Source of the DNA: an uncultured Rickettsiales bacterium
GTDB taxonomy: Bacteria > Myxococcota_A > UBA796 > UBA9615 > CAYRNR01
Direction: 5' to 3'
Assembly: GCA_964436045.1 (NCBI GenBank)
Contig: CAYTBN010000027.1
Coordinates: 1,409-65,408, forward strand
DNA: 64,000 nt
Below the pieces are notes generated by a model. The model was not told the origin of the DNA. It saw nothing but the letters and a program-made list of their open reading frames with translations, and ran no database searches. Positions 45,621-63,702 of this stretch are shown piece by piece. The position numbers and the translations under genes were made by a program. Positions within the stretch are counted from its first letter, which is position 1; each line of letters starts with the position of its first letter.

Positions 45621-46001
45621 TCAGAGGCTCGGGCCGGTGGGATCCTCGTCTTCCAGATCCTGGAAGGATGGCTGCTCGGGCAGCTCGAGATCCTCGCAGG
45701 TCGGCGCCGCGGCCACCGAGAGGTTGGCGGTGATACACCAATCGTAGAGCGCGTTGCGATCCTCGGTCCGGGCCACGACGAGGGCGCGCTCGAAGCGGTC
45801 CAGGCACTTGGAGTGGTACTCCTCCGCCGAATCCGCGCCCACGCTCTGCCACGTGAGGTCCTCGGTACCGCTGTCGTCGGGCGGCACCACACACCCATTG
45901 TAGAAGTCAGTGATGCTGTCGCAGTAGGTCTGGCACGGCGTGTTGCAGCCGGCGAGCACCAGTCCGGCCAGCGCCGGGATCCACCACCATCGTATGTTCA
46001 T
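45621..46001 (-). CDS. Hypothetical lipoprotein (last gene of Tad-like locus operon)
   Basis: Start MNIRWWWIPALAGLVLAGC. Cys-rich. Its start overlaps the cpaF2 stop (ATGA). Confidence 0.5.
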   Translation of the reverse strand: MNIRWWWIPALAGLVLAGCNTPCQTYCDSITDFYNGCVVPPDDSGTEDLTWQSVGADSAEEYHSKCLDRFERALVVARTEDRNALYDWCITANLSVAAAPTCEDLELPEQPSFQDLEDEDPTGPSL

Positions 46002-47134
46002 TTTTTCAGATCCTCCTTGCGCCGGGCCGCCTCGGCCATGTCGGCCATGGCCTTGGGGAGCGCGATCCCTTGAAGCCGGATGTCCTCGGCGAACGCGGGT
46101 ACCCCGCGACATTCGAGACGGCCGATGGGGCCATCCTTGCCCCGGGCCACCACGCGGTACCGGTAGATATCTGTCACCTGATACGAGTTGTCCTTGGTAA
46201 GCGTCAGCACCTCGGAGACGTGGGTCACCTTGCGGGTCCCGTCGGGGAAGCGCTGGATCTGAACCAGCAGGTCGATGGACGACGAGATCTGGGACCGCAG
46301 CGCATGGAGCGGCAGTTGCACATCGCTCATCATGCACAGGGTCTCGATTCGGGCCAGGGCATCGTGGGGGTTGTTGGCGTGGGTGGTGCTCATCGAGCCC
46401 CGGTGACCCGATGTCATCGCCTGGACCAGGTCCAGCGCCTCGGGACCGCGCACCTCGCCGATCACGATCCGATCGGGCCGCATCCGCAGGCTCGTGCGCA
46501 GCAGATCGCGCATGGAGACCTCGCCCCTGCCGTCCCGGTCCGGCGGCCGCGTCTCCAGCGTGATCACGTGGGGCTGCTGCAGCTGGAGCTCGCTGCTGTC
46601 CTCGAGCACGAGGATCCGCTGGTCGAGGGGGATGCGCGTCGACAGCACGTTGAGCAGCGAGGTCTTCCCCGAGCCGGTCCCACCGGTGACCAGCAGGTTG
46701 CGGGAGCTCGCGACGCAGACGCCGAGGAACTCCGCCGTCTCCTCCGACAAGGTCTGCAGCTGGACCAGCTTTTCGATGTTCATCACCTCGCGCTGGAACT
46801 TGCGGATCGCCAGGTAGATGCCTTGCCGGGCAACCGGCGGCATGATCACGGTCACCCGGGCACCGTCGGGCAGGCGGGCGTCGAGCAAGGGCTGCTCGGC
46901 ACTGATGCTCTTGCCCACGAACTGGGCGATGTTGCGCACCGCGGAATCCAGCGCGGCCTCGTCGGGGAACCGCAGCTGGGTCTGGTGCAGTCGCCCCGCC
47001 CGCTCGACGTACACCTCGCTGGCGCCGTTCACCAGGATGTCGGAGACCTTGGGATCCGCCAGCGCCTGGGACACCGGTTGGAGGTGGTCCCGCAGGGTCT
47101 GCGCGAAGATCTCGTTCAGGGATACCTGCGCCAC
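45998..47134 (-). CDS. CpaF/TadA-family secretion ATPase (paralog 2, no FHA domain)
   Basis: Walker A is GGTGSGKTSLLNVL. T2SSE motifs are IVIGEVRGPEALD and MTSGHRGSMSTTHAN. GTG start at 47134 is supported by GGGGAG 7 nt upstream; the track ATG at 47191 would overlap the upstream gene by 56 nt. Confidence 0.8.
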   Translation of the reverse strand: MAQVSLNEIFAQTLRDHLQPVSQALADPKVSDILVNGASEVYVERAGRLHQTQLRFPDEAALDSAVRNIAQFVGKSISAEQPLLDARLPDGARVTVIMPPVARQGIYLAIRKFQREVMNIEKLVQLQTLSEETAEFLGVCVASSRNLLVTGGTGSGKTSLLNVLSTRIPLDQRILVLEDSSELQLQQPHVITLETRPPDRDGRGEVSMRDLLRTSLRMRPDRIVIGEVRGPEALDLVQAMTSGHRGSMSTTHANNPHDALARIETLCMMSDVQLPLHALRSQISSSIDLLVQIQRFPDGTRKVTHVSEVLTLTKDNSYQVTDIYRYRVVARGKDGPIGRLECRGVPAFAEDIRLQGIALPKAMADMAEAARRKEDLKK

Positions 47135-47135
47135 G

Positions 47136-49601
47136 TCACAGCTCCCCCAGGCGTGAGGCCGCCTTGTCGTAGTACGTGAACCCGTCGCCACGGGGGGCGA
47201 TCGCCATCACCTGCTCGTACGACTCGCGCGCGGACTCGACGCCCCCGCCGCGTTCGGTCTGGTACCCCTCCAGGTAGATACCCTTGGCGATCTCCTCGAG
47301 CTCCTTGCGTCCGGCCGAGATGCCCTTGTGGCTCGACCACGCCTTGCGCCCCGAGCTCCATTCGAAGTTGGCCTTGGCGTACTTGCCGTTGTCGAAGGCC
47401 TCCCGACCACGCCGGTAGCGGCACTCGGCCAAGCCCTGTCGGATCTCGTCCCGCCGGTTGTTGCTGCCTTCCATCCGCGTGACGTTCTTGTACGAGGACT
47501 CGAAGCGGTCCAACGCCGCGTCCAGCTCACCGCGGTCCATCGCCTTGTTGCCGGCGGCGAAGGCCCGCTCGACGCGGTCGAGGCGGCCGAGCACGTCCTG
47601 CAGCTCGAGCTTCTGCCCGGGATCGGAGGCCGTGTCGATGGCCCGCTCGAGGGTGGATCGCGCCTGCTCGACATCGCCCGCCGTATAGGCCGATATTGCC
47701 TGTTCGGCGACCTTCTCGGCCGAGCTCGAGGAGCGGCGTTCGTCCCGCGACGAGCGATCGCGGTCACGGTCCCGATCGCGGTCACGGTCACGGCCCGCCT
47801 CCTGCGCGGGGGTACTGTCCTCGGTCGCCACCGTTTCGGGGATGCCAGCGGTGTCCAGCTCCCGCCCCAGGTTCTCCTTGTACTGCTCGATCAGCTTCTT
47901 GCGCTTCCGCGGCTTGGCCTCGGCGATGGACCTCAGCTCATCGGGCCCGCTGACCGCGGGGTCGTAGGCCTCCGCCCCGTCCAGCGAAGCGAGGGCGTCG
48001 TCGATGTTGTCGTTCTCGAGGGCCACCACCGCCTCGTCCACCATCCGGCGGGCCACCAGCGGGATCATCGGCTCCACCAGCGACTTGGCCTGGATGAAGT
48101 AGCAGGAGGTGGCCGGAATACTCTTGTAGGCCTCGTAGGCACGGCCGAAGTCCAGATGCACGCTGGACTGGCTGTACAGCTTGACGAACTCCTGGACGTC
48201 CCCCAGCCGGGACAGGTTGTCCCGCTCCTGGGCGATGTTCTGGAGGTAGGCCTGGGCCTCGGTGTAGCGGGGATCGATATCGATCAACTGAACCAGGTAG
48301 CCCTCGGCGGTGTCCCAGTCCTGCTCGTCGTACGAGGCCGCCCCCGCCAGGTACATCGGCTCCATGTCGCGGCGGGTGTTGCCCGCACCGAAGTTGAACA
48401 TGTAGCCGGCGGCCTGGAACAACAGCGCGAGCACGATCACGACGCCGACAGATCCCAGGATCGCCAGCTGCCAGGTGCGGAACTGGAGCCCCCCCACCGC
48501 CACGAGCCCCTTCTTCGCGGGCTTGGCTGCGGTCTGGGCAACCGGCGCGGCCTGACGCGGAGGCGCCGTCTGGGGCCCCAGGGTCGCGCCGGCCTGGACG
48601 CTCGGTGGCAACGCGCTCACTTCGCGCATGGTCGCCGCGGTGCGACCGCTGCGAGAGGGCGGGCCGGGTGTCAGTGCCTGGGTCGGATGGCCGGACGGCG
48701 GCAGCGGCGCCGCCGCACTCATCTGGGCTGCGAGGGACGCTGGCGCAGCCTCGCCTGGCCGCCGGAAGAGCATCAGCACGCCGCCGATCTGCAGGCGCGT
48801 CCCGTTGATCAGCTCCGCCTGGGCGACGTCCTGGCTGTCCACCCGGATTCCGTTGGTGGACCCGGTGTCCTTGACCACGTACCGTCCGCCGTCCAGGTCG
48901 ACCCTGGCGTGCTGGCGGGACACGAACGGGTCGTCCAGTACCAGGTTGTTGCGGCTGCCGGCGCCGATGGTCACACCCCGACTCCCGACCGTGATCATGT
49001 GCCCCTTGCCGTCGCCGTCGACGATCTCGAGATAGGCGTGACCCTCGCGCGCGGTCATTCCACTCTCGGTCGCCCGCACGACGTCGGCCGGCGAGGCCCC
49101 CCCCGGCGCCCGTCCGGCGAGGGGGTCGGTCATGGGCATCGAGCGGGCGAACTGGCCCGGCGGAGTGGCGGGGGGCTGTGCCGGTGCCGCCTCCACGGGA
49201 TCCAGCAGGTCGGAGACATCCGCGTCCGCCGGCGAAGGGGCGCCCGGATCGAAGGCCTCGGGGACCGGCGAGCTGCCCTTGGGCCGCAGGTAGCCCGGCA
49301 GCCCCTCGTCGCCCTCGGCGAACACCAGTTCGTAGGGGCCTACCCGGATCCGGTCGCCGGTGGAGATGGCCACCTCGCCGTCGACCCGGATCCCGTTGAT
49401 CAGGGTGCCGTTGGACGAGTTGAGGTCCTTTGCGGCAAACCCGCCATCCTGCTTGATGATCTGACAATGGAACTTGCTGACCTGGCGGTCGCCGAGCACG
49501 AGGTGGTTGCGACTGTCCCGGCCGACGGCGAACTCGTCCCGGTCGACCGGGCGGGAGAAGCTCCGCCCGTCGGCCGTACTGACGGTGATCTGCGCCGTCA
49601 T
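47136..49601 (-). CDS. Double-FHA-domain membrane protein with C-terminal TPR-like domain
   Basis: Two FHA cores are present: FAVGRDSRNHLVL...SSNGTLINGIRV and ITVGSRGVTIGAGSRNNLVL...STNGIRV. A Pro/Ala-rich linker follows. One TM helix is present (LAILGSVGVVIVLALLF). A (DR)5 low-complexity tract and helical TPR-like repeats follow. Confidence 0.75.
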   Translation of the reverse strand: MTAQITVSTADGRSFSRPVDRDEFAVGRDSRNHLVLGDRQVSKFHCQIIKQDGGFAAKDLNSSNGTLINGIRVDGEVAISTGDRIRVGPYELVFAEGDEGLPGYLRPKGSSPVPEAFDPGAPSPADADVSDLLDPVEAAPAQPPATPPGQFARSMPMTDPLAGRAPGGASPADVVRATESGMTAREGHAYLEIVDGDGKGHMITVGSRGVTIGAGSRNNLVLDDPFVSRQHARVDLDGGRYVVKDTGSTNGIRVDSQDVAQAELINGTRLQIGGVLMLFRRPGEAAPASLAAQMSAAAPLPPSGHPTQALTPGPPSRSGRTAATMREVSALPPSVQAGATLGPQTAPPRQAAPVAQTAAKPAKKGLVAVGGLQFRTWQLAILGSVGVVIVLALLFQAAGYMFNFGAGNTRRDMEPMYLAGAASYDEQDWDTAEGYLVQLIDIDPRYTEAQAYLQNIAQERDNLSRLGDVQEFVKLYSQSSVHLDFGRAYEAYKSIPATSCYFIQAKSLVEPMIPLVARRMVDEAVVALENDNIDDALASLDGAEAYDPAVSGPDELRSIAEAKPRKRKKLIEQYKENLGRELDTAGIPETVATEDSTPAQEAGRDRDRDRDRDRDRSSRDERRSSSSAEKVAEQAISAYTAGDVEQARSTLERAIDTASDPGQKLELQDVLGRLDRVERAFAAGNKAMDRGELDAALDRFESSYKNVTRMEGSNNRRDEIRQGLAECRYRRGREAFDNGKYAKANFEWSSGRKAWSSHKGISAGRKELEEIAKGIYLEGYQTERGGGVESARESYEQVMAIAPRGDGFTYYDKAASRLGEL

Positions 49602-51019
49602 CTACGGGCGTCCTTCATCGCCTGCTCGATCTGCGCAAGCTCGCGGGCGGCGTACTGGAAGCGCTCATCGGTCTCATCGTCGATGAGCCGCATGATGAAT
49701 CCCAGCTCCTCCTGGCCCTCCCGGTAGTTCCCGGCGCGCTTGAGCTTCTGGTAGTGAAACAGCGCGTCCCGATGCTTCTGGTCGCGCAGGTCCTCGGCCT
49801 CCCGCAGCTTGGCCTCCACGTCCGCGACCAGCGAGCCGGGCTCCCCCAGCAGTTGCAGGGTGGCATTGGAGTTTCGCAGCTGCTGGATCGCCTGCGTCAG
49901 GTTCCCGTCCTGGAGGTGGTGCTCCTCGAGCTTCTTGCTGCCCACGTCCAGGTACTTCTGTGCGTCCGCCCGCAATTCGGCGTCCGACCGTCCCGCCCGG
50001 TCGCCCACGATCACCGGTGCCGACGAGCCACCCGCCTCGCCCCGGTCATAGGTCGCGGTGCCGGCGGTGCCGGCTCCCGGCACGATGGCATCCTTCCAGG
50101 CCCAGAGCGCCAGCAGCAGCATCACCAGCAACATCGCGGCGCGCACACCGTTGCTCTGCAGCGGGGACTTCTTGCTCTTCTGGCGGGCGGTGACCCCGTC
50201 GGCCATGCCGTCGGTCGCCTCCTGGATCGCCACCGACAATCGGCGCGGGTCCAGCTCGTCGAGCTCTGCTTGATCCTGGGCCGGTTTGCTGGGATCGGTC
50301 AGGATGACCGCCTGGCTGGGGCCCGGCTGCGCGACCGGCGCGGGCGCGCAGCCGGGCAGCACCCGTGTGTGCTCGTCGTCGCCGCGCCCGGGCACGCCGA
50401 GCTGGGCCGCGCCGCTGGCTGCGGCGGGCTGGGCCACCGGGCTGCCGAGGAGCTGGGGGGCCGCGGGGGCACTCTCCTTGGACCGGCCGCGCGGCAGCAC
50501 CTGGGTGTGCTGGTCGTCGGGCCGTCCGGGATCCTCCAGGTCGTCCGCCGGCTCCAGCGGTGCGTTGGGCACCAGATCCAGCGAGTCCTCGTCGTCGTCG
50601 TCGAGGCCGTCCAGGCTGATCTCGGGCATCGCCGGGCCGGGCGCCAGCGGATCGGGCGCGCTCCTCGCCCCGGCACCCCGGCTGGCGCGGTAATCCAGCG
50701 TCCGCGGCCCGGTCTGCTCCGGCCGGCTCAGATCGGGGTCGAAGCGCAGCTTGTAGTCGCAGACCGTGATCTCGTCGCCGGCCTTCAGCTCGACGTTGCT
50801 GACCTTCTCGCCATTGACGTGGGTCGGGTTGCGGCTGTGGCCCACCACCAGCACCGCCCGGGCGGCCTGGGCGTGGATCGCGCAGTGCACCCGGGAGACC
50901 GACGGGTCGTCGAAGACGATCTCGCAGCCGCGATCCCTGCCGATCCGGATCACCTGGGAGCGGAAGGTCACCAGCGGACCGGTCTCACGCTTGTCCAGGA
51001 TCTGGATCTTCACCGGCAT
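49598..51019 (-). CDS. FHA-domain membrane protein
   Basis: Start MPVKIQILDK. The FHA core is IRIGRDRGCEIVFDDPSVSRVHCAI...NPTHVNGEKV. An acidic disordered region and one TM helix (AAMLLVMLLLALWAW) follow. The C-terminus is coiled-coil-like. Confidence 0.7.
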   Translation of the reverse strand: MPVKIQILDKRETGPLVTFRSQVIRIGRDRGCEIVFDDPSVSRVHCAIHAQAARAVLVVGHSRNPTHVNGEKVSNVELKAGDEITVCDYKLRFDPDLSRPEQTGPRTLDYRASRGAGARSAPDPLAPGPAMPEISLDGLDDDDEDSLDLVPNAPLEPADDLEDPGRPDDQHTQVLPRGRSKESAPAAPQLLGSPVAQPAAASGAAQLGVPGRGDDEHTRVLPGCAPAPVAQPGPSQAVILTDPSKPAQDQAELDELDPRRLSVAIQEATDGMADGVTARQKSKKSPLQSNGVRAAMLLVMLLLALWAWKDAIVPGAGTAGTATYDRGEAGGSSAPVIVGDRAGRSDAELRADAQKYLDVGSKKLEEHHLQDGNLTQAIQQLRNSNATLQLLGEPGSLVADVEAKLREAEDLRDQKHRDALFHYQKLKRAGNYREGQEELGFIMRLIDDETDERFQYAARELAQIEQAMKDARR

Positions 51020-51036: not shown

Positions 51037-51945
51037 TCACACCAGGTCCCCGTTCATGTAACGCACGATCAGCGGGCCGAACATGGTCAGGAACACCGCG
51101 ATCAAGATCATCAGGATCGGGAACAGGATCTTGATGGTCGCCTCGGCTGCGATCTTCTCGGCCCGCTGGGTCCGCTTCAACCGGTTGGCCTGGGCCTGCA
51201 CCTGGAGGATCCGGGACAGCGGCGTCCCCATCGCCTCGGCCTGCACCACCGCGCCGACCACGGAGGTGACGTACTCGGACTGGATTCGATCCGACATGTT
51301 CAGCAGGGCCTCGCGCCGGGTCACACCGAGCCGGATCTCCTGCAGCACGTAGTGCAGCTCCTCGATCAGCGGGCCCTTCTGGCTCTCCTTGCTGACCACC
51401 GAGTCCAGGGCGGTGTTGAAGTCCAGCCCGGCCCCCAGGCTCAAGCTCAGCAGGTCGAGCACGAAGGGCAGGTGGCGGTTGACCGCCGACAGCCGGCGAA
51501 TGATCAGATCCTCCATGTAGAGGAAGGGCAGGTAGGCGCTGATCATCCCCGGGATCATCGCCAGCAATGGGCTGGCGCCGCCGAGCCCCACCGCGGTGAA
51601 GGCGATGCCGAACAGCATGCCGCTGATCCCGGCACACACGCAGGTGGCCAGGAACTCGTCGGGGGTGAATCCGCCCGGGTGACCGGCGCGGGCCAGCTTG
51701 ACCTTGAGTCCCGCTCGGACCTTGTCCAGATCCAGCGTCCCGATCCAGTAGGTGGGGATGAAGATCAGGATCCGGAGCATCACGTAGGCCTGGTTGCTGT
51801 CGGCCAGCTGCTGGCGCTTGAAAGCAACGAACCCCTTCTCGGGCGCCTCGCCGTCCCAGTCCTCGTCGGGGGCCATCGCCCGCACGGCCGCGTAGACCGC
51901 CAGGAACAGGACCGCGGATGCGAACAGGCCGTAGATGTACAGCAT
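51037..51945 (-). CDS. TadC/GspF-like inner-membrane platform protein
   Basis: T2SSF-domain features (LGAGLDFNTALDSV...QAEAMGTPLSRIL) and three TM segments. Confidence 0.8.
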   Translation of the reverse strand: MLYIYGLFASAVLFLAVYAAVRAMAPDEDWDGEAPEKGFVAFKRQQLADSNQAYVMLRILIFIPTYWIGTLDLDKVRAGLKVKLARAGHPGGFTPDEFLATCVCAGISGMLFGIAFTAVGLGGASPLLAMIPGMISAYLPFLYMEDLIIRRLSAVNRHLPFVLDLLSLSLGAGLDFNTALDSVVSKESQKGPLIEELHYVLQEIRLGVTRREALLNMSDRIQSEYVTSVVGAVVQAEAMGTPLSRILQVQAQANRLKRTQRAEKIAAEATIKILFPILMILIAVFLTMFGPLIVRYMNGDLV

Positions 51946-52805
51946 CAGATGTCCGCCGCCAGGATCCGCCGGATGAGGAACACGCCGACGGCCTCGAAGG
52001 CCAGGATCAGGAAGATGATCACGTAGCCCTTTGGATCGGTGAACAGCTCGGAGATGTACTCGGGATCGATCAGATAGACGGCGAAGGCGAAGGCGGCCGG
52101 CATGCCACCGATGACCCAGCCCTGGAGCTTACCCTGGGCGGTCATGGTCTTGATCTTCTCCTCCAGGCGGAAGATCTCGCGGATCGCCGACGAGGTGTCC
52201 TCGAACACCTGGGGCACGTTGCCGCCGTGGACCCGGGTGATCAGGATCCCGGTCATCACCATGTCGAAGAACCGGCTGCGCAGCCGGTTGCCCATCTTGA
52301 CCAGCGCCTCCTCCAGGGTCAGCCCCAGCTTGTGCTCCTTGAGCATCAGCCGGAACTCCTGGTTGATGGGCGGCTCCATGGAGTCGGAGACCACGTCCAT
52401 TGCCTGGGTCAGCACCAGGCCGGCGCGCATGGAGTTGGCCATCGACTGCAGGGCGTCGATCAGCTGCTGGTCGAACTTCTCCATCCGCTTCTGGCGGGCG
52501 CGTCGCAGCAGGAAGGTGGGCACGAAGTAGGCCAGCCCGGCGATCACGATGGCCCCGAACCAGCCGATGAAGTTGGCCACACCCAGGAAGACCAGGATCA
52601 TGAAGGCGATGTGGTAGACGAAGAACCGCTTGGGCGAGAACTCGATGTACAGGTCGTCCAGCTGGGAGCCGACCCAGTCCACGTAGCGCGCATAGAAGTC
52701 GTCGAGCTTCTGGGTCACCCAGCGTCCGTTGAGCGCCACCACCAGGAGCATGGTCACCAGGAAGCCCAGCACCACCAGGATCAGGAACGGGGTCGAGGTC
52801 CACAT
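51945..52805 (-). CDS. TadB/GspF-like inner-membrane platform protein
   Basis: T2SSF-domain features (MANSMRAGLVLTQAMD...) and TM segments. Its stop and start are adjacent to the flanking genes. Confidence 0.8.
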   Translation of the reverse strand: MWTSTPFLILVVLGFLVTMLLVVALNGRWVTQKLDDFYARYVDWVGSQLDDLYIEFSPKRFFVYHIAFMILVFLGVANFIGWFGAIVIAGLAYFVPTFLLRRARQKRMEKFDQQLIDALQSMANSMRAGLVLTQAMDVVSDSMEPPINQEFRLMLKEHKLGLTLEEALVKMGNRLRSRFFDMVMTGILITRVHGGNVPQVFEDTSSAIREIFRLEEKIKTMTAQGKLQGWVIGGMPAAFAFAVYLIDPEYISELFTDPKGYVIIFLILAFEAVGVFLIRRILAADI

Positions 52806-54406
52806 CAGAGGAACTCCCCGTCGGTGATGATGCCGCGCGCCACCAGGTCGGGGATGAAGGTCGGGATGTAGCCGGTGGTCTTGGTCTCCCCCATCACCGT
52901 GCCGTCCTCGGCCAGCCCATGCCGCAGGAAACGGAAGATCGGCTCGACCACGAAGTCGCCGTGCTCGTCCAACCGGGTCACCTCGGCGACCTCGGTGACC
53001 TTTCGGCTGCCGTCGCTCAGCCGCTCCTGGTGGACGATCAGATCGATCGCCGACGTGATCTGGTGGCGGACCGCGGAGATGGGCAGATCCATGCCGCTCA
53101 TCAGCACCATGGTCTCCAGCCGCGCGAGCATGTCCGACGTGGAGTTGGAGTGGCCGGTGGTCAGCGAGCCGTCGTGACCGGTGTTCATCGCCTGGAGCAT
53201 GTCCAGGGCCTCACCGCCGCGGCACTCTCCGACGATGATGCGGTCGGGCCGCATGCGCAGGGAGTTCTTGACCAGGTCGCGGATCGTGAATTCGCCCCGG
53301 CCCTCGATGTTGGCCGGCCGCGCCTCCAGGCAGACCACGTGCTCCTGGTCCAGTCGCAGCTCCGCCGAGTCCTCGATGGTGACGATCCGCTCCTTGTCAG
53401 GGATGAAGGTACTCAGCACGTTGAGCAGGGTGGTCTTGCCGCTACCGGTTCCGCCGCTGACCAGCACGTTGCAGCGCCCGCGCACCGCCCGCTGCAGGAA
53501 GCGGGCGATCTGGGGGGTCATCGTGTTGAACCCGATCAGGTCTTTCATCGTCAGCGGGTCGCGGCGGAACTTGCGGATGGTGATGCACGGGCCACGGATC
53601 GCCAGCGGCGGGATGATCGCGTTGACGCGGCTGCCGTCCTTGAGCCGGGCGTCCACCAGCGGCGATGACTCGTCGATCCGCCGGCCCAGCGGGGTGACGA
53701 TCCGCTCGATGACCGCCCGGATGGCATCGTTGCTGGTGAAGGTCTTGTCCGTCAGGGTGATCTTGCCGAGCTTCTCGATGTAGATCAGGTCCTTGCAGAC
53801 CACCATCACCTCGGTGATGTCGTCGTCCTTGAGGAAGTCCTCCAGCGGGCCGAGCCCCAGTGCCTCGTCGAGGATCTCCTTGACCAGCACCGCCCGGTCG
53901 ACGTGCTCCGGGATGGAGACCTTGCCGGCTCCGATGATCTCCTCGAGGGCCTGCTTGGACTGGCGGAAGACCTCCTCCTCGCCCAGGGCCTCGATATCGA
54001 GCCGCTTGAGGTCCAGGTGGTCCAGCAGCGTGTCGTGCATCGTGCGCTTGGTCTGCAGAACCGGGTCGTCCGCGCGCCGTTCGGCGATGGACGGGCCGCC
54101 GACCCGCGCGTCGGCGCTCACCAGGTCGACCTCGACCCGGCAGTCGCCGAGGATCACGTCGTCGCCCTCGCGCAGCATGACGTAGGAGTCGATGGGGGCA
54201 CCGTTGACCAGCGTGCCGTTGACGCTGGCGTCGATCAGCGACACCTCCTCGTCGTTGAAGAACACCCGTGCGTGCTGGCGGGAGACCGCCGGCGAGTTGA
54301 GCACGAGCTCGTTGGCATTGGGATCACGGCCGATGCGCACGGGCGAATTGGCGAACACCCGTTCCTGGACCTGACCATCCGAGCCGAGGTACCGCACTCT
54401 GAGCAT
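52805..54406 (-). CDS. FHA-domain-fused CpaF/TadA-family secretion ATPase
   Basis: The N-terminal FHA is VRIGRDPNANELVLNSPAVSRQHARVFF...SVNGTLVNGAPI. The C-terminal ATPase has Walker A GGTGSGKTTLLNVL, IIVGECRGGEALD and MNTGHDGSLTTGHSNS. Confidence 0.85.
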   Translation of the reverse strand: MLRVRYLGSDGQVQERVFANSPVRIGRDPNANELVLNSPAVSRQHARVFFNDEEVSLIDASVNGTLVNGAPIDSYVMLREGDDVILGDCRVEVDLVSADARVGGPSIAERRADDPVLQTKRTMHDTLLDHLDLKRLDIEALGEEEVFRQSKQALEEIIGAGKVSIPEHVDRAVLVKEILDEALGLGPLEDFLKDDDITEVMVVCKDLIYIEKLGKITLTDKTFTSNDAIRAVIERIVTPLGRRIDESSPLVDARLKDGSRVNAIIPPLAIRGPCITIRKFRRDPLTMKDLIGFNTMTPQIARFLQRAVRGRCNVLVSGGTGSGKTTLLNVLSTFIPDKERIVTIEDSAELRLDQEHVVCLEARPANIEGRGEFTIRDLVKNSLRMRPDRIIVGECRGGEALDMLQAMNTGHDGSLTTGHSNSTSDMLARLETMVLMSGMDLPISAVRHQITSAIDLIVHQERLSDGSRKVTEVAEVTRLDEHGDFVVEPIFRFLRHGLAEDGTVMGETKTTGYIPTFIPDLVARGIITDGEFL

Positions 54407-54443: not shown

Positions 54444-55613
54444 CTAGGGCCACATCTTCATCTCGCGATACTCCTCGATGTTGCGGTCGATCAGGTCCCG
54501 GTTCTCATCGCCGTCGGGCTCGATCAGGTACGGGGTGATGAAGATCACGCCGTCGGTGTCGTCCTTGCTGAAGTTCCGGGTGCTGAAGAAAGCGCCGAGC
54601 AGTGGGACCTCGGACAGCCAGGGCATGCCCGCGACCTCACGCTTGCTCTTGTGCCGTACCACCCCGGCCAGGGCCAGGCTCTGGCCCTCCTTGAGCAGCA
54701 CGGTGGTCTCCTGCTTCTTGTTGCTCAGGGTGTAGACACCGGACTCGAACGAGGTGATGTCGGAGATCTCGTAGTTGACCTGCAGGTGAACGTTGTCGCG
54801 CCGGTCGATGCGCGGCGTGGCCTCCAGGATGACCCCGAACGGCCGCTCGACCAGGTTGACCGTGCTCTGGGTCTGCACCGGGATCAGCAACACGCCGCCG
54901 TACTCGTAGTGGGTCGTCTCGCCGTGGAGCACCGTGGCCTCGTGGGACTCCCACACCCGGGTGAAGGCCTGCTGGGCGTCGAAGTTGACCAACTGATCCA
55001 GCTGCACGGTCGGGCCGTTTCGGACCACGTCCATCCAGTTGAAGACCATCGTGGCCAGGTTGCCCGACAGGTTCATCCCGTATTCCTTGGCCTTCTCGCG
55101 ATCGACCTCGACGAAGTCGAACGCCAGCCGGAACATGGGCTTGAGGTCCACGGCCTTGGGATCCAGCCGGGCCAGGTTGACCACCACGTCGTAGGCCGCG
55201 GCGATCCCGTTGATGCGCTCCATGTCGTCCGAGGTCAGCACCTCGCCGGAGACCAGCAACCTGCCGCCGACGATGTTGACCGAGATGCCCTCGACGTCGA
55301 TCAGCATGTCCTCGATCGTGTCGCGCAGCTCGTCGAGGCTGTCCTCGGAATAGACCGTGATCTTGTAGGTCGTGTCGCCGACGGTGACCGACGAGTAGCC
55401 GGCCGCAATCGCCTTGAGCACCACCTGATTCCCCTTGGCGATGACCTTGACGATCTTCTCGTTGCCGGGGATCACCGTGGTGCGCTGGGACACAGAGACC
55501 ACGTGGGTGTCCCCGACCTTCATCGAGAGTGTCTCCTCCTCGGCGCTCGCCGTCGCGGCGAGAATCAGCAGGAGGAGGAACAACAGCGGCGCGATTGCGT
55601 TTCGTACCTTCAC
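54444..55613 (-). CDS. Secretin (CpaC/RcpA-like), short form
   Basis: Signal peptide MKVRNAIAPLLFLLLLILAATASA. The C-terminal secretin domain contains GMPWLSEVPLLGAFFS...VIFITP. 389 aa. Confidence 0.8.
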   Translation of the reverse strand: MKVRNAIAPLLFLLLLILAATASAEEETLSMKVGDTHVVSVSQRTTVIPGNEKIVKVIAKGNQVVLKAIAAGYSSVTVGDTTYKITVYSEDSLDELRDTIEDMLIDVEGISVNIVGGRLLVSGEVLTSDDMERINGIAAAYDVVVNLARLDPKAVDLKPMFRLAFDFVEVDREKAKEYGMNLSGNLATMVFNWMDVVRNGPTVQLDQLVNFDAQQAFTRVWESHEATVLHGETTHYEYGGVLLIPVQTQSTVNLVERPFGVILEATPRIDRRDNVHLQVNYEISDITSFESGVYTLSNKKQETTVLLKEGQSLALAGVVRHKSKREVAGMPWLSEVPLLGAFFSTRNFSKDDTDGVIFITPYLIEPDGDENRDLIDRNIEEYREMKMWP

Positions 55614-55620: not shown

Positions 55621-56439
55621 TCAGCGGATGATGTTGATCAGCTCGTTGCGCTTCGTCTGGACCTGGTTGCGCTTCTTCTCGCCGAAGACGTCGCTGAAGT
55701 CCTTGGGCGGCAGCGCCAACTCGGTGGTGATGTCGTTCTCGTTGCGCAGGGACAGCGCGATCTTGCCCTTGTCGACCGAGAAGGTGAGCAGCTCCGCCTC
55801 CTCGGGGGTGACCAGCACGGTCACGGTCTGGTAGCCGCGGCCCGAGGTGGACTCCGACGAGCCCCGCTCCTTGCTGCCCAGGCGGGCACCCACCGCCAGC
55901 ACGGTCACGTTCTGCAGCAGGGTGATGGTGACCCACTCCTTCTTCTCGGGCTTCATGAAGGTGCCGAGGATGTCCACGTGGTCGTTGGGCTGGAGCAGGC
56001 CGCCCATGGAGGAGACCTGGTCGACCGGGATCGACATCGCCCGCCACCCCTCCTTGACCACCTGGTCCAGCTCCACGTCGGAGCGCGGGTCGGAGAAGTC
56101 TGTCCACAGCAGGGTCTGCCCCTCGCGGATGGTATGGGCCACCCGCTGGCCGACGATCCGCTCCCACTCGTTGATGAACACCGACTGCGGGTGCACGTAG
56201 GACTCGGGCACCTCGATCTGCGTCAGCATGTCGTGGGAGATGGGTTTGTCTGCTGCGATGTCGAACTTGGCGGCGACCAGGGTCACCTTCTCACCGGCGA
56301 CGCCGTACTTGGCCGCCAGCTGCTGGGTATAGATGTACAAGAGCAGCACCGCGAGGATCGCCAGACCGAGGGAGACCAGCAACACCTTCCGTCGATTGGA
56401 GGGTACACCGCTGGTCGCATTCTGCTTGTTGTCCGCCAC
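55621..56439 (-). CDS. CpaB/RcpC-like Flp pilus assembly protein
   Basis: N-terminal TM (VLLVSLGLAILAVLLLYIY) and a SAF/CpaB-like periplasmic region. Confidence 0.65.
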   Translation of the reverse strand: MADNKQNATSGVPSNRRKVLLVSLGLAILAVLLLYIYTQQLAAKYGVAGEKVTLVAAKFDIAADKPISHDMLTQIEVPESYVHPQSVFINEWERIVGQRVAHTIREGQTLLWTDFSDPRSDVELDQVVKEGWRAMSIPVDQVSSMGGLLQPNDHVDILGTFMKPEKKEWVTITLLQNVTVLAVGARLGSKERGSSESTSGRGYQTVTVLVTPEEAELLTFSVDKGKIALSLRNENDITTELALPPKDFSDVFGEKKRNQVQTKRNELINIIR

Positions 56440-56503: not shown

Positions 56504-57535
56504 TCAGTTCAGCGAGCCCGGCGGGCCGGTGACCACCACGGTGGTCACCGTGGTGCGGGTCTCCGGATCCTCCGTCGCCGTCACATGACACTGCTGCCGT
56601 CCGCGGACGAAGAGTGCCGACGGGGCGGAGCCACCCGCCGCTGCCGCCTCCGCGACCCTGGAATCTTCCGACCAATCGTACTGCGGAAGCTGGGTCGAAT
56701 AGAAGTCCAGGACCGACATTGCGTCGCGCGCGGACTGATACTGGCCCATGTGGACCAGCATCGAGCCGCTGTCCTGGGAGAACGACAGGAGGCGCACGTC
56801 ACCGGGTACGCGGGGTACGTCGGGGGGATCGGAACCGGGGGCGTCGTCCTCGCCATCGGTGGACACGGCGCGCACGTCGAAGTCCTCGGAGGGCCAGGCG
56901 GCCATCACGGTGGTCGAGCGGGCGCCGGGCTGGCGCAGGGCCAGGACGAACTTGGCGTCGCCCAGGTCCGAGATGCGCCCGCTGGCCGCGGCGGCCTCGG
57001 CCCGGCGGTTCATCTCCTCGGCCCAGCCCGGCTCGTCCCAGTCCGGGATCACGGCGGTGCCGTAGATCCCCCAGGTGCCGGCGTCGATGCGGGTCCCGCG
57101 GCGGCCGATGCGCTCGTTCATCTGCTCGCGGAGCCGATCCCAGTCCTCGCCTTCGATGTCGGGGTTCTTCGGGCTGTCCCCTCCCAGTTCGCCGGGAGGT
57201 CCCCCGTAGAGGTCCTCGTAGTAGTCCAGGACCTCGTCGACGGTGCGCCAGTCGTTCTCGAGGGTGTAGTAGATGCGGTTTCCGTTGAGGGTCGCGGCCT
57301 GTACCGAGCCCGGATCGACCTGCAGGTCCCACACCGACGGCACGCCAGCGAACGCGTCTCCCAGGGACTGGAAGACCGTGGCCTCGGCCGGCGGATTCAG
57401 CGGGGAGTTGGCATGACCGAACCAGAACACGGCCAGCGCGAAGGCGACGATCGCCGCCAGCCGCCAGGCCCGGTCCAGGATCGACCTGGACCCGCCCGAA
57501 CTAGAAGCACCAGTCGCAGAGTCCGTAGATCTCAT
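56504..57535 (-). CDS. Hypothetical single-pass membrane protein within Tad-like locus
   Basis: TM (LAAIVAFALAVFWF) then an acidic periplasmic domain of about 290 aa. No known motif. The start may be downstream of the track start, which overlaps tadE by 35 nt. Confidence 0.45.
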   Translation of the reverse strand: MRSTDSATGASSSGGSRSILDRAWRLAAIVAFALAVFWFGHANSPLNPPAEATVFQSLGDAFAGVPSVWDLQVDPGSVQAATLNGNRIYYTLENDWRTVDEVLDYYEDLYGGPPGELGGDSPKNPDIEGEDWDRLREQMNERIGRRGTRIDAGTWGIYGTAVIPDWDEPGWAEEMNRRAEAAAASGRISDLGDAKFVLALRQPGARSTTVMAAWPSEDFDVRAVSTDGEDDAPGSDPPDVPRVPGDVRLLSFSQDSGSMLVHMGQYQSARDAMSVLDFYSTQLPQYDWSEDSRVAEAAAAGGSAPSALFVRGRQQCHVTATEDPETRTTVTTVVVTGPPGSLN

Positions 57536-58121
57536 TGTATGCCCACATGTCCAGGTACGCCTCGTAGCCCCAGAGCACCACGTTGCCCTCGATGTCCTCG
57601 TAGTCCCAGTTCCCGATCGCGATCTTGTGCGTGCGCGTCACGTTGATGTTGCTGGCGTAGGGCAGCAGCGAGTTGCGGATCGGCTGGACCACCGTGGCCT
57701 CGTAGTGAGTGTCGACGGGCGCGATCCCGGTGGCCAGCATGGTGGCGATCTGGCTGTAGTTGATCAGCCCGGTCGGGTTGGTGAGGCCGCCCGGATCGGG
57801 GAATTGCAGAAAGATCGACGGGTCGAAGTCGCTGAGGTTCTCCAGGGTGTCGTTGGAGGCACTGCCGGAGATCGACGCCCCGGCCAGCTTGAAGTCGTTC
57901 TGTGCCTTGGCGGACGCCGCCGACAGGCTGTGGTTCGGGTCGTGGCGCCCGGCCTTCCAGGCCACGTAGCGTACGGCGATCTGGGCGTTCTGCTCCTGAT
58001 AGTAGGCCTTGCCGAAGTGGATGATCCCCATGATCAGGACCAGGAAGATCGGCAGGGTCACGGCGAACTCGACCGTGGCCTGCCCGCGGACGTCTTCGCG
58101 CAGTCGGCGGATGGCTCTCAT
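57501..58121 (-). CDS. TadE-like pseudopilin
   Basis: N-terminus MRAIRRLREDVRGQATVEFAVTLPIFLVLIMGII is the TadE signature. Confidence 0.75.
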   Translation of the reverse strand: MRAIRRLREDVRGQATVEFAVTLPIFLVLIMGIIHFGKAYYQEQNAQIAVRYVAWKAGRHDPNHSLSAASAKAQNDFKLAGASISGSASNDTLENLSDFDPSIFLQFPDPGGLTNPTGLINYSQIATMLATGIAPVDTHYEATVVQPIRNSLLPYASNINVTRTHKIAIGNWDYEDIEGNVVLWGYEAYLDMWAYNEIYGLCDWCF

Positions 58122-59455
58122 CAGTGGGTGATCACGATCTGGGTAAGGTCACTGAGGCCCGCGACCCACAACGATATCCGACCCGCCGCGCCGATGTCCG
58201 GGGGCATCGGCAGCCCCGGCGTCGTCAGCATGTAGTCGGTCATGAACAGGGGCATGTCTCCCAGCTTGGACACGGGCACCAAGTGGGCGTGCCAGCGGGG
58301 GACGAACATGTTGCCGTCTTGGGTGTTGGTGACCTCGGCCTGGGCCACCGTGATCATCCCGAACACCTCGTTGTACGGGTTGTTGAAGTGGTCGGGCAGG
58401 GCGATGACCTCGCCCTGCTCGGGCGAATCGTAGCCGATGGCGACGTACTGGGCGGAGTCCGGGAACTCGTCGTCCAGGATCAGCGGATTGGCCTTGCCGG
58501 TGTCCGTGTAGTCCGACAGGCTCGGGTACCACCACAGCCCCTGGCACTCGACCAGGTAGTACCAGGCCACGTTGGTCTCCCACCACGTGTTGCCCTTGGC
58601 CAGGGGCGCCATCTTGCCGAACAGCATCTGGTAGGGCAGCTGCTGGGTCGGGCTGCCCAGCGGACCGTTGGCCCAGTGGGGATAGGCCGCCAACGCCGGG
58701 GCGTACGCGTCCTCGGGATAGGCCGTGATGGCGTAGTACAACATCGCAGACACGGCGGCGGTCTTGATGCCGGCGTCCTCCCACAGGTCGTAGCCGCCGT
58801 CGTCGCCGTTGGCCATCGTCTCGCACAGATCGGTCATCTCCCCCTCTTTGAGGGGCATCTCGTTGGGCCACACGAAGGCGTAGTCCAGCCCGTTCTCCTG
58901 GGCCAGCATCGTGCCCTCGGTCATCGCCATCGCCTCGAAGCCGTCGCGTACCCCCTCGGCGACGGTCGTCAGATCGTCCATCCGTGTGAAGAGGAACTCG
59001 ATCTGATCGTCCAGCGGTGGCCAGCCGGCCATCAGCAGCTGGATCCCGACCATCGCGCAGTTCCACTCCTCGATGATCGACTGCCAGCAGCGGCCGAAGT
59101 CGAGGTCGCACCAGGGATCGCAGAAGCACGAGGCGTTGGCTGCGGCCATGTCGGCCGACTCCAGCACCGCCCAGGTGATGGACTCGGTGAAGATCGCCTC
59201 GGCGAGCAACATCGACTTCATGATGTTGGTCATCGCGATCAGGTTCATGCCGCGGGCTTCCCAGGTGGCCGCGCTGATGGCGGCCGAGTCGACCGCGTTC
59301 TGCGCCGTCACCTTGTGGGTCAGGTGGCGGCCATTGTTCAGCATCAGGATCACGAACGAACAGATCAGGAACCCGGTCAGGGCCACGAAGGCCATGGTCT
59401 GGCCGTCGCGCCTGTGGTGGAGCGACATCGCCCGGCGAACCAGCGTGCGCATCAC
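58121..59455 (-). CDS. TadG-like (Tad_N) pilus-associated protein
   Basis: N-terminus RRDGQTMAFVALTGFLICSFVILML is the TadG/Tad_N-type hydrophobic start. Large Cys/Trp-rich periplasmic domain. Confidence 0.65.
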   Translation of the reverse strand: MMRTLVRRAMSLHHRRDGQTMAFVALTGFLICSFVILMLNNGRHLTHKVTAQNAVDSAAISAATWEARGMNLIAMTNIMKSMLLAEAIFTESITWAVLESADMAAANASCFCDPWCDLDFGRCWQSIIEEWNCAMVGIQLLMAGWPPLDDQIEFLFTRMDDLTTVAEGVRDGFEAMAMTEGTMLAQENGLDYAFVWPNEMPLKEGEMTDLCETMANGDDGGYDLWEDAGIKTAAVSAMLYYAITAYPEDAYAPALAAYPHWANGPLGSPTQQLPYQMLFGKMAPLAKGNTWWETNVAWYYLVECQGLWWYPSLSDYTDTGKANPLILDDEFPDSAQYVAIGYDSPEQGEVIALPDHFNNPYNEVFGMITVAQAEVTNTQDGNMFVPRWHAHLVPVSKLGDMPLFMTDYMLTTPGLPMPPDIGAAGRISLWVAGLSDLTQIVITH

Positions 59456-60423
59456 GGGGTCTCCAGGGTCAGGGTGCAGGTGGCGTTGATCGCCGTGTAG
59501 CTACCCGGCGCGAACTCCAGCAACGAGAACTCCGAGGGCAGGGTGCCCATCTCGTCGATCAGCTGGGCCGCCAGCGGGATGTTGAGGTGGAAGCAGTGGG
59601 TGACCTGCACGGTGATGTCGTCGTGGGGATTGAAGGTGACCACGTCGCCCGGGGCGGCCACCACCGAGGTGCCGCCTCCGCTGACGGTGACGAACTTCAC
59701 CACGGTGCAGAAGTACGAGTAGGCGAACCGATCCGCATAGTCGAGCACCTGGACCGCGCCCGGGATCACCGACAACATGCTGGTGATGGCGTTGACCACG
59801 TCCATCACCAGCCCTCCCACCAGGGGCAGCCCGGCCAGCACGTGGCTGGCGCGCCGGGAGATCGGCACGCAGGCGATGACCGCGGAGTTCTTGATGTTGG
59901 AGTACTTCTCGTTGCCGGTCGACAGGGTGATCTTGTTGACCTCCTCGTCGGCCTCCATCGGGATCCAGACGATGGCGGAGCGGGCGGCGGCGTAGGCGGC
60001 GTACAGCGTCACGTTCTTGGCGTTGTACATCAGCGACATCTGGGCCACGCCCATCACGACCATCATCAGCGCCCAGAAGATGATCACGAACTCGGTGATC
60101 GCCTGACCGGCCTGGGCCCGTCGCAGCTTGACCAGCCCGCGGAAGGGCGACATCGGGCTGGAGACCAGCAGCGACATCCGCCACACCAGCAGGACCAGCG
60201 ATCCCACGGCCAGGGAGATCCCGATCGCGAGGCCGGTCGGGGCGCCGGTGAACGAGACGTTGGCGATCACCCCCGGTGCCACCGGCCCCGACCCGGAGAG
60301 CAGGCGCGCAGGCGAGGGTGCGAACAGCTGGATGCTCGCGAAGCAGGCGGCGGACACCCCCACGAAGGTCAGCAGGATCCGGAGGACTGTGGTCAAGCGG
60401 TTCGGCATTTTTCCCGCAACCAT
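59452..60423 (-). CDS. TadE-like protein with unusual N-terminal two-TM extension
   Basis: The TadE motif RRAQAGQAITEFVIIFWALMMVVMGV is internal, about 120 aa into the ORF. The preceding in-frame region has strong GC3 coding bias and two TM helices. Start uncertain (candidates 60474, 60423, 60408, 60177, 60153). Confidence 0.55.
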   Translation of the reverse strand: MVAGKMPNRLTTVLRILLTFVGVSAACFASIQLFAPSPARLLSGSGPVAPGVIANVSFTGAPTGLAIGISLAVGSLVLLVWRMSLLVSSPMSPFRGLVKLRRAQAGQAITEFVIIFWALMMVVMGVAQMSLMYNAKNVTLYAAYAAARSAIVWIPMEADEEVNKITLSTGNEKYSNIKNSAVIACVPISRRASHVLAGLPLVGGLVMDVVNAITSMLSVIPGAVQVLDYADRFAYSYFCTVVKFVTVSGGGTSVVAAPGDVVTFNPHDDITVQVTHCFHLNIPLAAQLIDEMGTLPSEFSLLEFAPGSYTAINATCTLTLETP

Positions 60424-62190: not shown

Positions 62191-62730
62191 TCAGAACAGG
62201 TCCATGTGTCGCAGCAGGTCCAGGTTCTCCAGGCTGGCCCAGATCGTCCCCACCGCGATCGCCACCCCGAAGGGAACCCGCTGGCTGTTGGCCGGATCCA
62301 GCTTCTGGGTCTGCATCGGCATCGCCCAGGTGACCACGGTCCACAGGGTGTTGCGGATCCCCCGCCACAGCACACCCTTCCACAGCATCACCGACACCGC
62401 GAGCACTCCCCCGACCAGGATCGTGTGGAAGAGTCCGCCCACGATCGCGGGATACCCCACGATCGCCCCCGCAGCTCCCATCAGCTTGACGTCGCCGCCC
62501 CCCATGCCGCCGAACAGGAACACCAGGAAGAAGGGCACGAAGCCCACCGCGAGCCCCAGGCCGTGCTGGCCCAGCTCGGGCAAGCCGCCGGCCACCACGG
62601 CCAGGACGAGCCCCAGCGCCACCGCGGGGTAGGTGATCTGGTTGAAGATCTTGCCGGTCGCCAGGTCGCTCAACGCGCACAGCACCATCACGCCGTACAA
62701 GAGCACCTTTTCGGCGACCTCATAGGGCAT
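62191..62730 (-). CDS. Prepilin peptidase CpaA/TadV (A24 family)
   Basis: 179 aa polytopic protein. Asp-containing motifs (LSDLATGKI...GGGDVKLMGAAGA) are typical of TadV/CpaA. Confidence 0.8.
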   Translation of the reverse strand: MPYEVAEKVLLYGVMVLCALSDLATGKIFNQITYPAVALGLVLAVVAGGLPELGQHGLGLAVGFVPFFLVFLFGGMGGGDVKLMGAAGAIVGYPAIVGGLFHTILVGGVLAVSVMLWKGVLWRGIRNTLWTVVTWAMPMQTQKLDPANSQRVPFGVAIAVGTIWASLENLDLLRHMDLF

Positions 62731-62859
62731 CGGTCGGGCCCGCGCAGCCTATGGTGAAACGAGTAGAGAACAAGAGGACGACTCCGAGAAAACGTGCGCT
62801 GGATCCCCAATGGCCTGTGCTATGGTTCCGCTGCACGGAATAGCGGGAAGGTACCACAG

Positions 62860-63054
62860 GTGCATCCGAGCAGCGACGCAACCGAGCGCCGCCCAGTGAG
62901 GCGACGCGACGAGTCGGGTCAGGCGATGACGGAGTACATCCTCGTCGTCGCGATCGCGGTCGTCGGACTGATCCTGGTCAGCAACGCGCTGACCCGCTCG
63001 GTCCTCGCGTACTTCACGATGCAAGCCCTGTGGATCTCTCTGCCCATCATGTGA
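62860..63054 (+). CDS. Flp-family pilin 1
   Basis: The leader ends ...DESG|QAMTEY, with Glu at +5 and Tyr at +6 of the mature peptide and a hydrophobic stretch ILVVAIAVVGLILV. GGGAAGG RBS precedes the GTG start. Confidence 0.75.
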   Translation: MHPSSDATERRPVRRRDESGQAMTEYILVVAIAVVGLILVSNALTRSVLAYFTMQALWISLPIM

Positions 63055-63460: not shown

Positions 63461-63702
63461 CCGTACCGTGCGCCGCGCCAGCCGACTGGAGTCCCTTGAA
63501 TCCAGGCCAGCCCAACCACGATCCGCCCGCCGACGGCCGCCTGCCCCAGGCGACACCGGTCGATGACAACCTGTCGACGACGGATGGCGAGCTGGCCGAA
63601 GAGCTGGAGCCCGATCTGGAGCCGGTGGAGCCCGTGCTGCAGGCCACTCCGGTGGACGGCATCCCGGTGGTACCCGGCGGTGGCCCGCCCGACGACGGCG
63701 AG

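Follow-up and report, generated by a model that had tools for sequence, protein, structure and literature searches.

In a 64,000-nucleotide (nt) stretch of contig CAYTBN010000027.1 from an uncultured bacterium placed by GTDB in Myxococcota_A (the whole of this stretch is hereafter called the window), the minus-strand gene at 52805..54406 encodes, with near certainty as regards both identity and architecture, a motor ATPase with a forkhead-associated (FHA) domain at its N-terminus, i.e., a class III CpaF. An earlier note on this DNA had described a complete CpaF/TadA ATPase with an FHA domain fused in front of it, and Pfam, AlphaFold2 (AF2) modeling, Foldseek and the alignment with CpaF all confirmed this assignment. 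It should be stressed that the novelty of the fusion, which that note implied, did not hold, as the same design has already been published as KilF (PMC8460266) and as class III CpaF (PMC12019362); the locus is a further example from uncultured Myxococcota and introduces no new principle. What it adds is an adjacent receptor-type kinase at the window edge and a conserved second ATPase devoid of the three-helix bundle (3HB). The fusion gene and its parts are as follows:

52805..54406, minus strand: FHA-CpaF fusion (KilF-type, 'class III' CpaF) of 533 amino acids (aa), a Tad/Kil-like motor ATPase (Pfam, CpaF alignment, AF2)
54122..54406, minus strand: FHA domain, residues 1-95, all-beta, with R27, S42, H45, and N63 conserved (Pfam, alignment, AF2, Foldseek)
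53858..54121, minus strand: short linker (residues ~96-106, of low predicted local distance difference test score, pLDDT) and then a helical bundle (helices 107-183) (AF2, CpaF alignment)
52808..53857, minus strand: CpaF N-terminal domain (NTD) and C-terminal ATPase domain (CAD) with Walker A, Asp box, Walker B, and His box (Pfam, CpaF alignment)

The open reading frame (ORF) begins 38 nt past the stop codon of the secretin gene, with an ATG preceded at ~10 nt by a GGAGG Shine-Dalgarno sequence, and the N-terminus of its product matches those of its homologues residue for residue, so the start codon is credible. The PF00498 (FHA) profile was matched over its full length (positions 1-67 of 67) by residues 23-87, with an E-value of 2.9e-16 and 60.1 bits against a cutoff of 20.7, and thus the profile search proposed in the earlier note was passed. 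The fingerprint GR / SRxH / SxNGT named there is real as well and corresponds to G26-R27, S42-R43-x-H45, and S61-x-N63-G64-T65. In an alignment of 58 homologues (identity down to 52%), G26, R27, S42, H45, S61, N63, and G64 were invariant and T65 nearly so, and R43 was counted together with R27, S42, H45, and N63 among the invariant phosphate-contact residues. Moreover, the HMMER alignment paired GR…VSRRH…SLNGT of GarA/Rv1827, a verified phosphothreonine (pThr) binder, with GR27…VS42RQH45…SV62N63GT of the fusion protein; since GarA also has a hydrophobic residue at this position, Val62 is not a defect.

The suggested structure prediction gave an equally clear answer: the AF2 model of residues 1-105 (mean pLDDT 91.5, pTM 0.82) is all-beta and has the FHA fold. 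Its top Foldseek matches in the PDB were GarA, Chlamydia CT664, FhaA/Rv0020c, EmbR, Bdellovibrio DgcB, Ki67, MDC1, and the type III secretion system proteins YscD and PscD (TM-score 0.77-0.86, root-mean-square deviation ~2 Å); nearly all of the top 50 are FHA-annotated or FHA-containing. At the sequence level the domain thus carries every mark of a phosphothreonine reader and may bind pThr.

The remainder of the protein is a CpaF motor. The T2SSE family (PF00437) was found at residues 183-461 (E=5.4e-60), and residues 103-514 match the solved CpaF of C. crescentus (E=7e-112), covering residues 67-476 of chain 9e24. The best structural matches of the full-length AF2 model were also CpaF (9e24/8rkd, E ~1e-35, 46% identity); the moderate quality of this model (pLDDT 72.6, with a low-confidence stretch at 357-417) is unimportant, because the sequence already matches solved CpaF structures. 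Walker A (GGTGSGKTT), the Asp box, Walker B (with the catalytic E394), and the His box are all present and invariant, and helices 107-183, preceding the NTD, are the counterpart of the CpaF 3HB according to both AF2 and the CpaF alignment. The top NCBIfam match, TIGR03819 (337 bits against a cutoff of 373), represents a different TadA subfamily and was not used for membership.

In the paper on the cryo-EM structure of CpaF (Nat Commun 2025, PMC12019362), three CpaF architectures were distinguished, of which the FHA-bearing one, named "class III CpaF", was mostly betaproteobacterial and its FHA domain was given no function. The fusion protein contains the minimum CpaF architecture as defined there (3HB, NTD, and CAD) and, within one polypeptide, the complete class III order of an N-terminal FHA domain, a linker or intrinsically disordered region (IDR), and 3HB-NTD-CAD. 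It thus shares its domain order (FHA-IDR-3HB-NTD-CAD) with class III proteins such as E3HIW0 of Achromobacter xylosoxidans, and Burkholderiales members were found in this work too; unlike those of the published class, it is myxobacterial and its IDR is nearly absent. The linker between FHA and 3HB has only ~10-20 residues, much fewer than in most homologues, in which it is hypervariable in length and sequence and contains no conserved Thr.

The minus-strand genes around the fusion form one tightly packed, complete Tad/Kil-type operon of ~17 kb, with two pilin genes and the start of a kinase gene on the opposite strand beyond it. Genes lying past base 64000 were read from metagenome contigs carrying the same protein. 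In transcriptional order of the operon, and then along the plus strand, the features other than the fusion are:

62191..62730, minus strand: prepilin peptidase (Peptidase_A24), the first gene of the operon (Pfam)
60617..62125, minus strand: 502-aa polytopic membrane protein of no Pfam family, in the interval between the peptidase and tadE (Pfam, synteny)
59452..60423, minus strand: TadE-like minor pilin, whose metagenome copy is called with 323 aa (Pfam)
58121..59452, minus strand: TadG-like (PF13400) pseudopilin or tip-type protein of 443 aa (Pfam)
57501..58121, minus strand: TadE-like minor pilin (Pfam)
56504..57535, minus strand: conserved 343-aa protein of no Pfam family (synteny)
55621..56439, minus strand: CpaB/RcpC (TIGR03177 above cutoff; NCBIfam)
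54444..55613, minus strand: short secretin of 389 aa, in which only the C-terminal Secretin domain was found (Pfam)
51945..52805, minus strand: TadB/CpaG-type platform protein (T2SSF; Pfam)
51037..51945, minus strand: TadC/CpaH-type platform protein (T2SSF; Pfam)
49598..51019, minus strand: 473-aa protein with an N-terminal FHA domain, a disordered linker, a transmembrane (TM) helix, and a periplasmic coiled coil; PrgH/YscD-like, resembling MXAN_4649
47136..49601, minus strand: 821-aa protein with two cytoplasmic FHA domains, one TM helix, and periplasmic TPR; resembling KilD/MXAN_3108 or MXAN_4648
45998..47134, minus strand: second ATPase, 378 aa, the last gene of the operon (Pfam, CpaF alignment)
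62794..63054, plus strand: Flp-type pilin (…GQAMTEYILVV…), divergent from the operon, its exact start uncertain (ORF reading)
63077..63262, plus strand: Flp-type pilin (…GQGMTEYILIV…) of 61 aa, with a weak PF04964 match (ORF reading)
63496..64000, plus strand: receptor-type Hanks Ser/Thr kinase of 585 aa, of whose gene the first 168 codons lie inside the window and the rest beyond its end (complete at L084:912-2669, minus strand)

The L-numbers denote comparison loci, of which L001 belongs to a Myxococcota metagenome-assembled genome (MAG), L006 and L033 are of the Myxococcaceae type, and L084 and L086-L088 are among the metagenomic contigs. The partner set of a Tad system is thus present around the fusion (TadB/TadC, CpaB/RcpC, secretin, Flp pilin, and prepilin peptidase); the Flp pilins were identified by inspecting small ORFs, as a regular-expression scan for Flp returned none. 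The single Pfam domain detected in the 389-aa secretin is PF00263, at residues 222-364. No ParA/TadZ-like match, and hence no TadZ/CpaE, was found in any ORF of the cluster, and the FHA-ATPase gene lies directly 3' of the secretin gene, i.e., in the usual place of TadZ/CpaE. According to Pfam, the three FHA proteins of the operon carry four FHA domains in total. A scan for terminators and promoters downstream of the second ATPase gene found none, so the end of the operon is set only by the change of gene orientation.

Two proteins of the operon have no Pfam family. The 502-aa membrane protein is missing at the corresponding position in L001, where the peptidase gene adjoins tadE, and it appears to have been inserted into the operon in a lineage-specific manner. 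The 343-aa protein recurs in the same tadE/cpaB interval of L001 and of three metagenomic contigs, on which it measures 338-340 aa, and it is likely an uncharacterized structural component.

The closest known counterpart of this locus is the Kil Tad-like predation apparatus of Myxococcus xanthus, in which KilF (MXAN_3107) was described as "fused to an N-terminal FHA domain" (Seef et al. 2021, eLife, PMC8460266) and which was also covered in a further paper (Nat Commun 2025, PMC12075869). The Kil system has a short secretin, which lacks the N0 domain, and a single ATPase, and its authors proposed a phosphorylation cascade similar to that of the type VI secretion system (T6SS) (PMC8460266). In Supplementary file 1 of the same work, KilF is listed as 'FHA domain; P-loop', KilD as 'FHA; TPR', and MXAN_4649, beside KilH, as 'PrgH-like; FHA', and the three FHA proteins of the operon are the one-to-one counterparts of KilF, KilD, and MXAN_4649. 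Both systems, found in the same phylum (Myxococcota), share an FHA-fused CpaF-type hexameric ATPase, a short secretin, the lack of TadZ, several accessory FHA proteins (one with FHA and TPR, as in KilD, and a PrgH-like FHA protein beside the platform genes), prepilin peptidase, CpaB, TadB/C, Flp, and minor pilins. They differ in that one ~17-kb locus stands here against two distant clusters in M. xanthus, a second ATPase without the 3HB closes the operon (so the single motor typical of Kil does not apply), a receptor Hanks kinase is directly adjacent, and the FHA-to-ATPase linker is much shorter (the protein has 533 aa against ~590-640 aa). With the Myxococcaceae homologue, the ATPase core shares 58% identity, and the organism is known only from metagenomes. 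In the Myxococcaceae-type locus L006, the gene order is peptidase-secretin-FHA-ATPase-FHA protein.

The kinase gene comes next after the two divergent flp genes, ~770 bp away from that of the prepilin peptidase. The 168 codons present in the window are identical to those of the complete gene in L084 and include the Gly-rich loop and the VAVK lysine; the catalytic loop lies past base 64000, outside the six-frame motif scan of the window, and the earlier note had no means of recognizing the kinase. The complete protein consists of an N-terminal extension of ~100 aa, a kinase domain (Pkinase, E=2.3e-49, with HRDMKPGN, DFG, and APE intact), one TM helix, and an extracytoplasmic C-terminal domain of ~180 aa, and by this combination of a kinase domain, a single TM helix, and an extracytoplasmic part it is of the receptor type. 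The kinase and both ATPases share one contig of 89,463 bp. The kinase gene of L001 adjoins the flp, DUF192, and peptidase genes of that locus, and kinase matches at a distance of ≤10 kb from the cluster were also found in L007, L039, L032, and L067. It is also worth mentioning that the N-terminal extension contains the repeats LPQATPVD / LQATPVD (window positions 63541-63564 and 63637-63657, plus strand; kinase residues 16-23 and 48-54), in which a Thr with an Asp at +3 resembles the pattern of FHA ligands; the QATPVD repeat is lineage-specific, as the L001 kinase lacks the extension, and it was not used as evidence.

Taken as a whole, the locus probably encodes an unsplit Kil-type Tad (type IVc) pilus machine with a class III motor that is recruited in a phospho-dependent manner. 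As regards the last element by itself, namely that the FHA domain acts via phosphothreonine, we regard the chances as evenly balanced. The hexameric motor would not be docked constitutively, and its six FHA domains would serve as modules of phospho-dependent recruitment or activation, binding pThr sites made by a Hanks kinase, here presumably the adjacent receptor kinase. Candidates for the pThr partner would be the kinase, the platform, and the two FHA-TM proteins through their disordered cytoplasmic linkers, and the motor would be brought to TadB/TadC only at the place and time of an envelope or contact signal; the FHA domain may thereby take over the localization role that TadZ has in canonical Tad systems. 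Such a logic would parallel the PpkA-Fha1 threonine phosphorylation that licenses T6SS assembly, as well as the TadZ-TadA fusion of Bdellovibrio. Within this frame, the 'kinase-gated assembly or firing' suggested by the earlier note is a plausible hypothesis, to which the complete set of pThr-contact residues and the kinase linked to the cluster both here and in L001 lend some support.

The behavior of the Kil proteins, by analogy, fits regulated recruitment: before prey contact KilF is diffuse, afterwards it is clustered at the contact site, and clusters of KilD form upstream of Tad assembly (PMC8460266). In a 2025 review the Kil FHA proteins were called 'promising candidates', with no mechanism shown.

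Several observations weigh against phospho-dependent recruitment. In the literature searched, no phosphopeptide binding or kinase dependence was found for any FHA-CpaF, so that the mechanism stands as a hypothesis only, and the pThr targets named above are candidates only. YscD/PrgH-type FHA folds act without phosphorylation, and by its sequence the FHA region scores on the Yop-YscD_cpl profile of Pfam too (residues 19-90, E=8.8e-9). Furthermore, three closely syntenic contigs have no kinase within 10 kb, which indicates that the kinase linkage is lineage-specific, and no PP2C phosphatase was found either in the window (Pfam, six-frame motif scan) or in the flanks of L084 and L086; a full module resembling the threonine phosphorylation pathway (TPP) is therefore not encoded locally.

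Some of these points favor the strongest competing explanation, in which the FHA domain is a phosphorylation-independent scaffold that, in the manner of the FHA-fold cytoplasmic domains of SctD (YscD/PrgH) in the type III secretion system, constitutively docks the motor to the FHA-TM proteins or the platform and structurally replaces TadZ with no kinase input. The Yop-YscD_cpl match, the presence of YscD and PscD among the Foldseek matches, the PrgH-like character of the neighboring FHA-TM protein, the absence of TadZ, the syntenic clusters without a nearby kinase, and the lack of a phosphatase in the window are all consistent with it. We nevertheless consider a pure scaffold unlikely, though it deserves to be taken seriously: such a role would make phosphate binding irrelevant, and the invariance of R27, S42, R43, H45, and N63 in 58 diverged homologues is then unexpected; moreover, the closest matches in sequence and in structure truly bind pThr, GarA, FhaA, EmbR, and DgcB among them, and a Hanks kinase is adjacent both here and in L001.

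A different use of the same phosphate-binding site was also considered, namely that the FHA domain is an autoinhibitory switch, intramolecular or within the hexamer, which recognizes a phosphorylated Thr of its own linker or of a neighboring subunit and alters ATPase activity or direction (extension versus retraction) instead of recruitment. GarA, OdhI, and DgcB, the closest matches, are self-binding FHA switches (in GarA/OdhI and Bdellovibrio DgcB, the ligand is the protein's own N-terminus in its phosphorylated form), and the region between the CpaF N-terminus and the 3HB affects extension/retraction and not ATPase activity (PMC12019362). Against such a switch speak the hypervariability of the linker among homologues, its reduction to ~10-20 residues here, and the absence of a conserved Thr, while the relocalization of KilF on prey contact in M. 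xanthus points to recruitment; we thus hold both the self-switch and its proposed effect on motor activity or direction to be improbable.

Returning to phospho-dependent recruitment, several known systems offer partial parallels. The PpkA/Fha1/PppA pathway of the Pseudomonas aeruginosa T6SS likewise combines a TM Hanks kinase and FHA protein(s) with a nanomachine that spans the envelope and whose assembly responds to contact or envelope signals, an analogy to Kil already drawn by the authors of the Kil study (PMC8460266). It differs in that the FHA domain of the T6SS is located on a separate scaffold protein and not on the motor, that the machine belongs to another family (hence an analogy only), and that a kinase and FHA proteins occur here with no PP2C found. 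An N-terminal FHA domain on a transport or secretion ATPase is also known from Rv1747, the mycobacterial ABC transporter regulated by PknF, and from EssC (FtsK-type) of the type VII secretion system, although these ATPase families are unrelated to CpaF; the FHA domain of Rv1747 was among the sequence matches. The FHA domains of EssC are probably phospho-independent. Finally, in the TadZA fusion of Bdellovibrio bacteriovorus (bioRxiv 10.64898/2026.07.08.737194), a recruitment or localization module is attached by a flexible linker to the N-terminus of TadA in the Tad machine of a predator, the fused module there being not FHA but TadZ, a ParA/MinD-like protein with the polarity hub RomR as its binding partner.

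As to how Tad/Kil machines become active at a given place and time (e.g., on prey contact), the motor FHA provides the leading, if hypothetical, lead. As the kinase, three FHA proteins, both ATPases, platform, secretin, and pilins are gathered within ~19 kb, this compact locus is a useful template for reconstitution, co-evolution analysis, and AlphaFold-multimer tests of binding.

The ATPase encoded at the end of the operon (45998-47134, minus strand) was described in the earlier note as a second CpaF paralog lacking FHA. The absence of FHA was confirmed, since Pfam detected only T2SSE (E=4e-58), and all catalytic motifs are intact. The notion of a simple CpaF paralogue minus its FHA domain did not stand: the alignment with CpaF starts at chain residue 149, after the 3HB, with only ~18 residues preceding it, which means that the IDR and the 3HB are missing too, and the protein consists of the NTD and CAD core alone, short of the minimum CpaF architecture. 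Its gene starts 1 nt past the upstream stop codon. In a neighbor-joining (NJ) tree built on ATPase cores (without bootstrap values), it grouped with the FHA-less ATPases of L001, L050, L067, and L039 in a separate deep clade. A recent duplication of FHA-CpaF was considered as its origin and ruled out by this separate deep clade together with the different architecture.

Syntenic counterparts of the second-ATPase gene were found in L001 (16818-17891), L050 (10701-11807), L039 (19096-20073), and three metagenomic contigs (e.g., L087:14918-16072 and L088:15014-16183). Three metagenomic contigs unrelated to one another repeat the order FHA-CpaF, TadB, TadC, FHA-TM protein, short ATPase, the gene is conserved in many Kil-type clusters outside Myxococcaceae, and at least 15 entries in the homologue lists of the two ATPases coincide in the size of the longest contig, which suggests habitual pairing. 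The gene was not seen within 10 kb in L006 and L033 (Myxococcaceae-type cluster 1), in agreement with the single ATPase described for Kil, and a limited search of the Kil literature found no description of such an ATPase. Judged by its sequence and synteny, the second ATPase is an old, syntenically conserved partner lineage.

A doubtful extension would be an undescribed two-motor subclass of Kil-type systems, in which FHA-CpaF would be the kinase-licensed assembly motor and the 3HB-less ATPase its dedicated partner, with the receptor kinase picking the motor of the platform. It is similarly tentative that the partner would act in PilT-like retraction or in the export of effectors or tip proteins, and that such systems would be widespread in uncultured Myxococcota and their relatives. 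If true, the 'single bifunctional motor' rule would no longer hold for Tad pili.

The division of labor proposed in the earlier note, i.e., FHA-CpaF as a regulated motor and the second ATPase as a constitutive, independent pilus motor, found no support. The intact catalytic motifs of the second ATPase, its place in the same operon, its conserved synteny, and the suggested pairing would agree with it. However, an independent CpaF-like assembly motor is unlikely given the missing 3HB, the separate deep clade shows that the protein is not a recent duplicate, the Kil clusters of Myxococcaceae function without it, and a PilT-like retraction or accessory role or effector export would fit equally well, with nothing pointing to 'constitutive'; we therefore see little prospect for this proposal.

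The survey of FHA-CpaF fusions suggested in the earlier note was carried out as well. Both Pfam domains were present in 118 of the 120 top homologues. Among reference genomes, a tblastn search with a single FHA sequence gave few fusions, and a hidden Markov model (HMM) built from an alignment was used instead, by which both domains were found in one ORF at 24 of 80 CpaF loci. Pfam upheld the fusion in seven of the eight loci tested, the seven coming from Burkholderiales, Lentisphaeraceae, Spirochaetaceae, Anaerolineales, Oleiphilus, and Citreicoccus; the Burkholderiales fusions include the isolate Quisquiliibacterium transsilvanicum DSM 29781. The N-terminus of the eighth, the Acidithiobacillus protein (L008), was weak on the family HMM and failed the Pfam FHA profile, and it was not counted as a fusion. 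In Acidithiobacillus (L008:9854-11599 and L009), the N-terminal extension sits at the FHA position and may be a degenerate FHA domain.

Among reference genomes, the MAG of L001 is the closest relative (66% identity), and the genes of its locus correspond one by one, in the same order, to those found here. In the NJ tree the fused proteins were nearly monophyletic, with one Anaerolineales outlier, and this together with the conservation of the fusion implies selection on the fused state. The window ATPase was located inside the FHA-fused clade, nearest to Polyangia-type proteins and not to those of L006 and L033. The outlier, from an Anaerolineales MAG (L062:865-2775), lies outside the main FHA-fused clade and may reflect an independent fusion event. 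An artefactual fusion, by which a frameshift, misassembly, or wrong start would have joined a separate FHA gene to cpaF, is practically excluded by the identical 533-aa product, which is called on four or more independent contigs of different samples, by the two-domain architecture of 118 of 120 homologues and 24 single-ORF genome loci, and by the good Shine-Dalgarno sequence and aligned start; misassembly and frameshift in particular were ruled out by the independent contigs and the homologue architecture.

Beyond the operon, a DUF192 (COG1430) gene was present at the flp/peptidase end of every inspected cluster of the same type. In the contigs carrying this locus it lies just outside the window (L084:539-892 and L086:1558-1911), with counterparts at ~2060-2445 in L001, 2229-2579 in L087, and 2259-2657 in L088, and this recurrent position suggests that the gene belongs to the Tad/Kil-type system. 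On the other side, ~2 kb past the operon end, a DPBB_1 protein (RlpA-like lytic transglycosylase fold) is encoded at 43670-44083 (plus strand), which may have a connection with envelope remodeling. Two atypical kinases of the window, a CotH-family kinase (1054-2781, plus strand) and an ABC1/UbiB-type kinase (5802-7757, minus strand), are encoded at a distance of >45 kb from the Tad locus, and there is no reason to link them with it.

Elsewhere in the window, two adjacent large proteins (28691-31348 and 31339-33285, both on the minus strand) combine a zinc ribbon of the MJ0042 type (PF13717) at the N-terminus with TPR repeats at the C-terminus, and a small Zn-ribbon protein (28331-28690) comes after them. 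Furthermore, a diguanylate cyclase composed of a response regulator and GGDEF (25347-26888, plus strand) is immediately followed by an IgGFc_binding protein (26889-28334, plus strand; E=2e-83).

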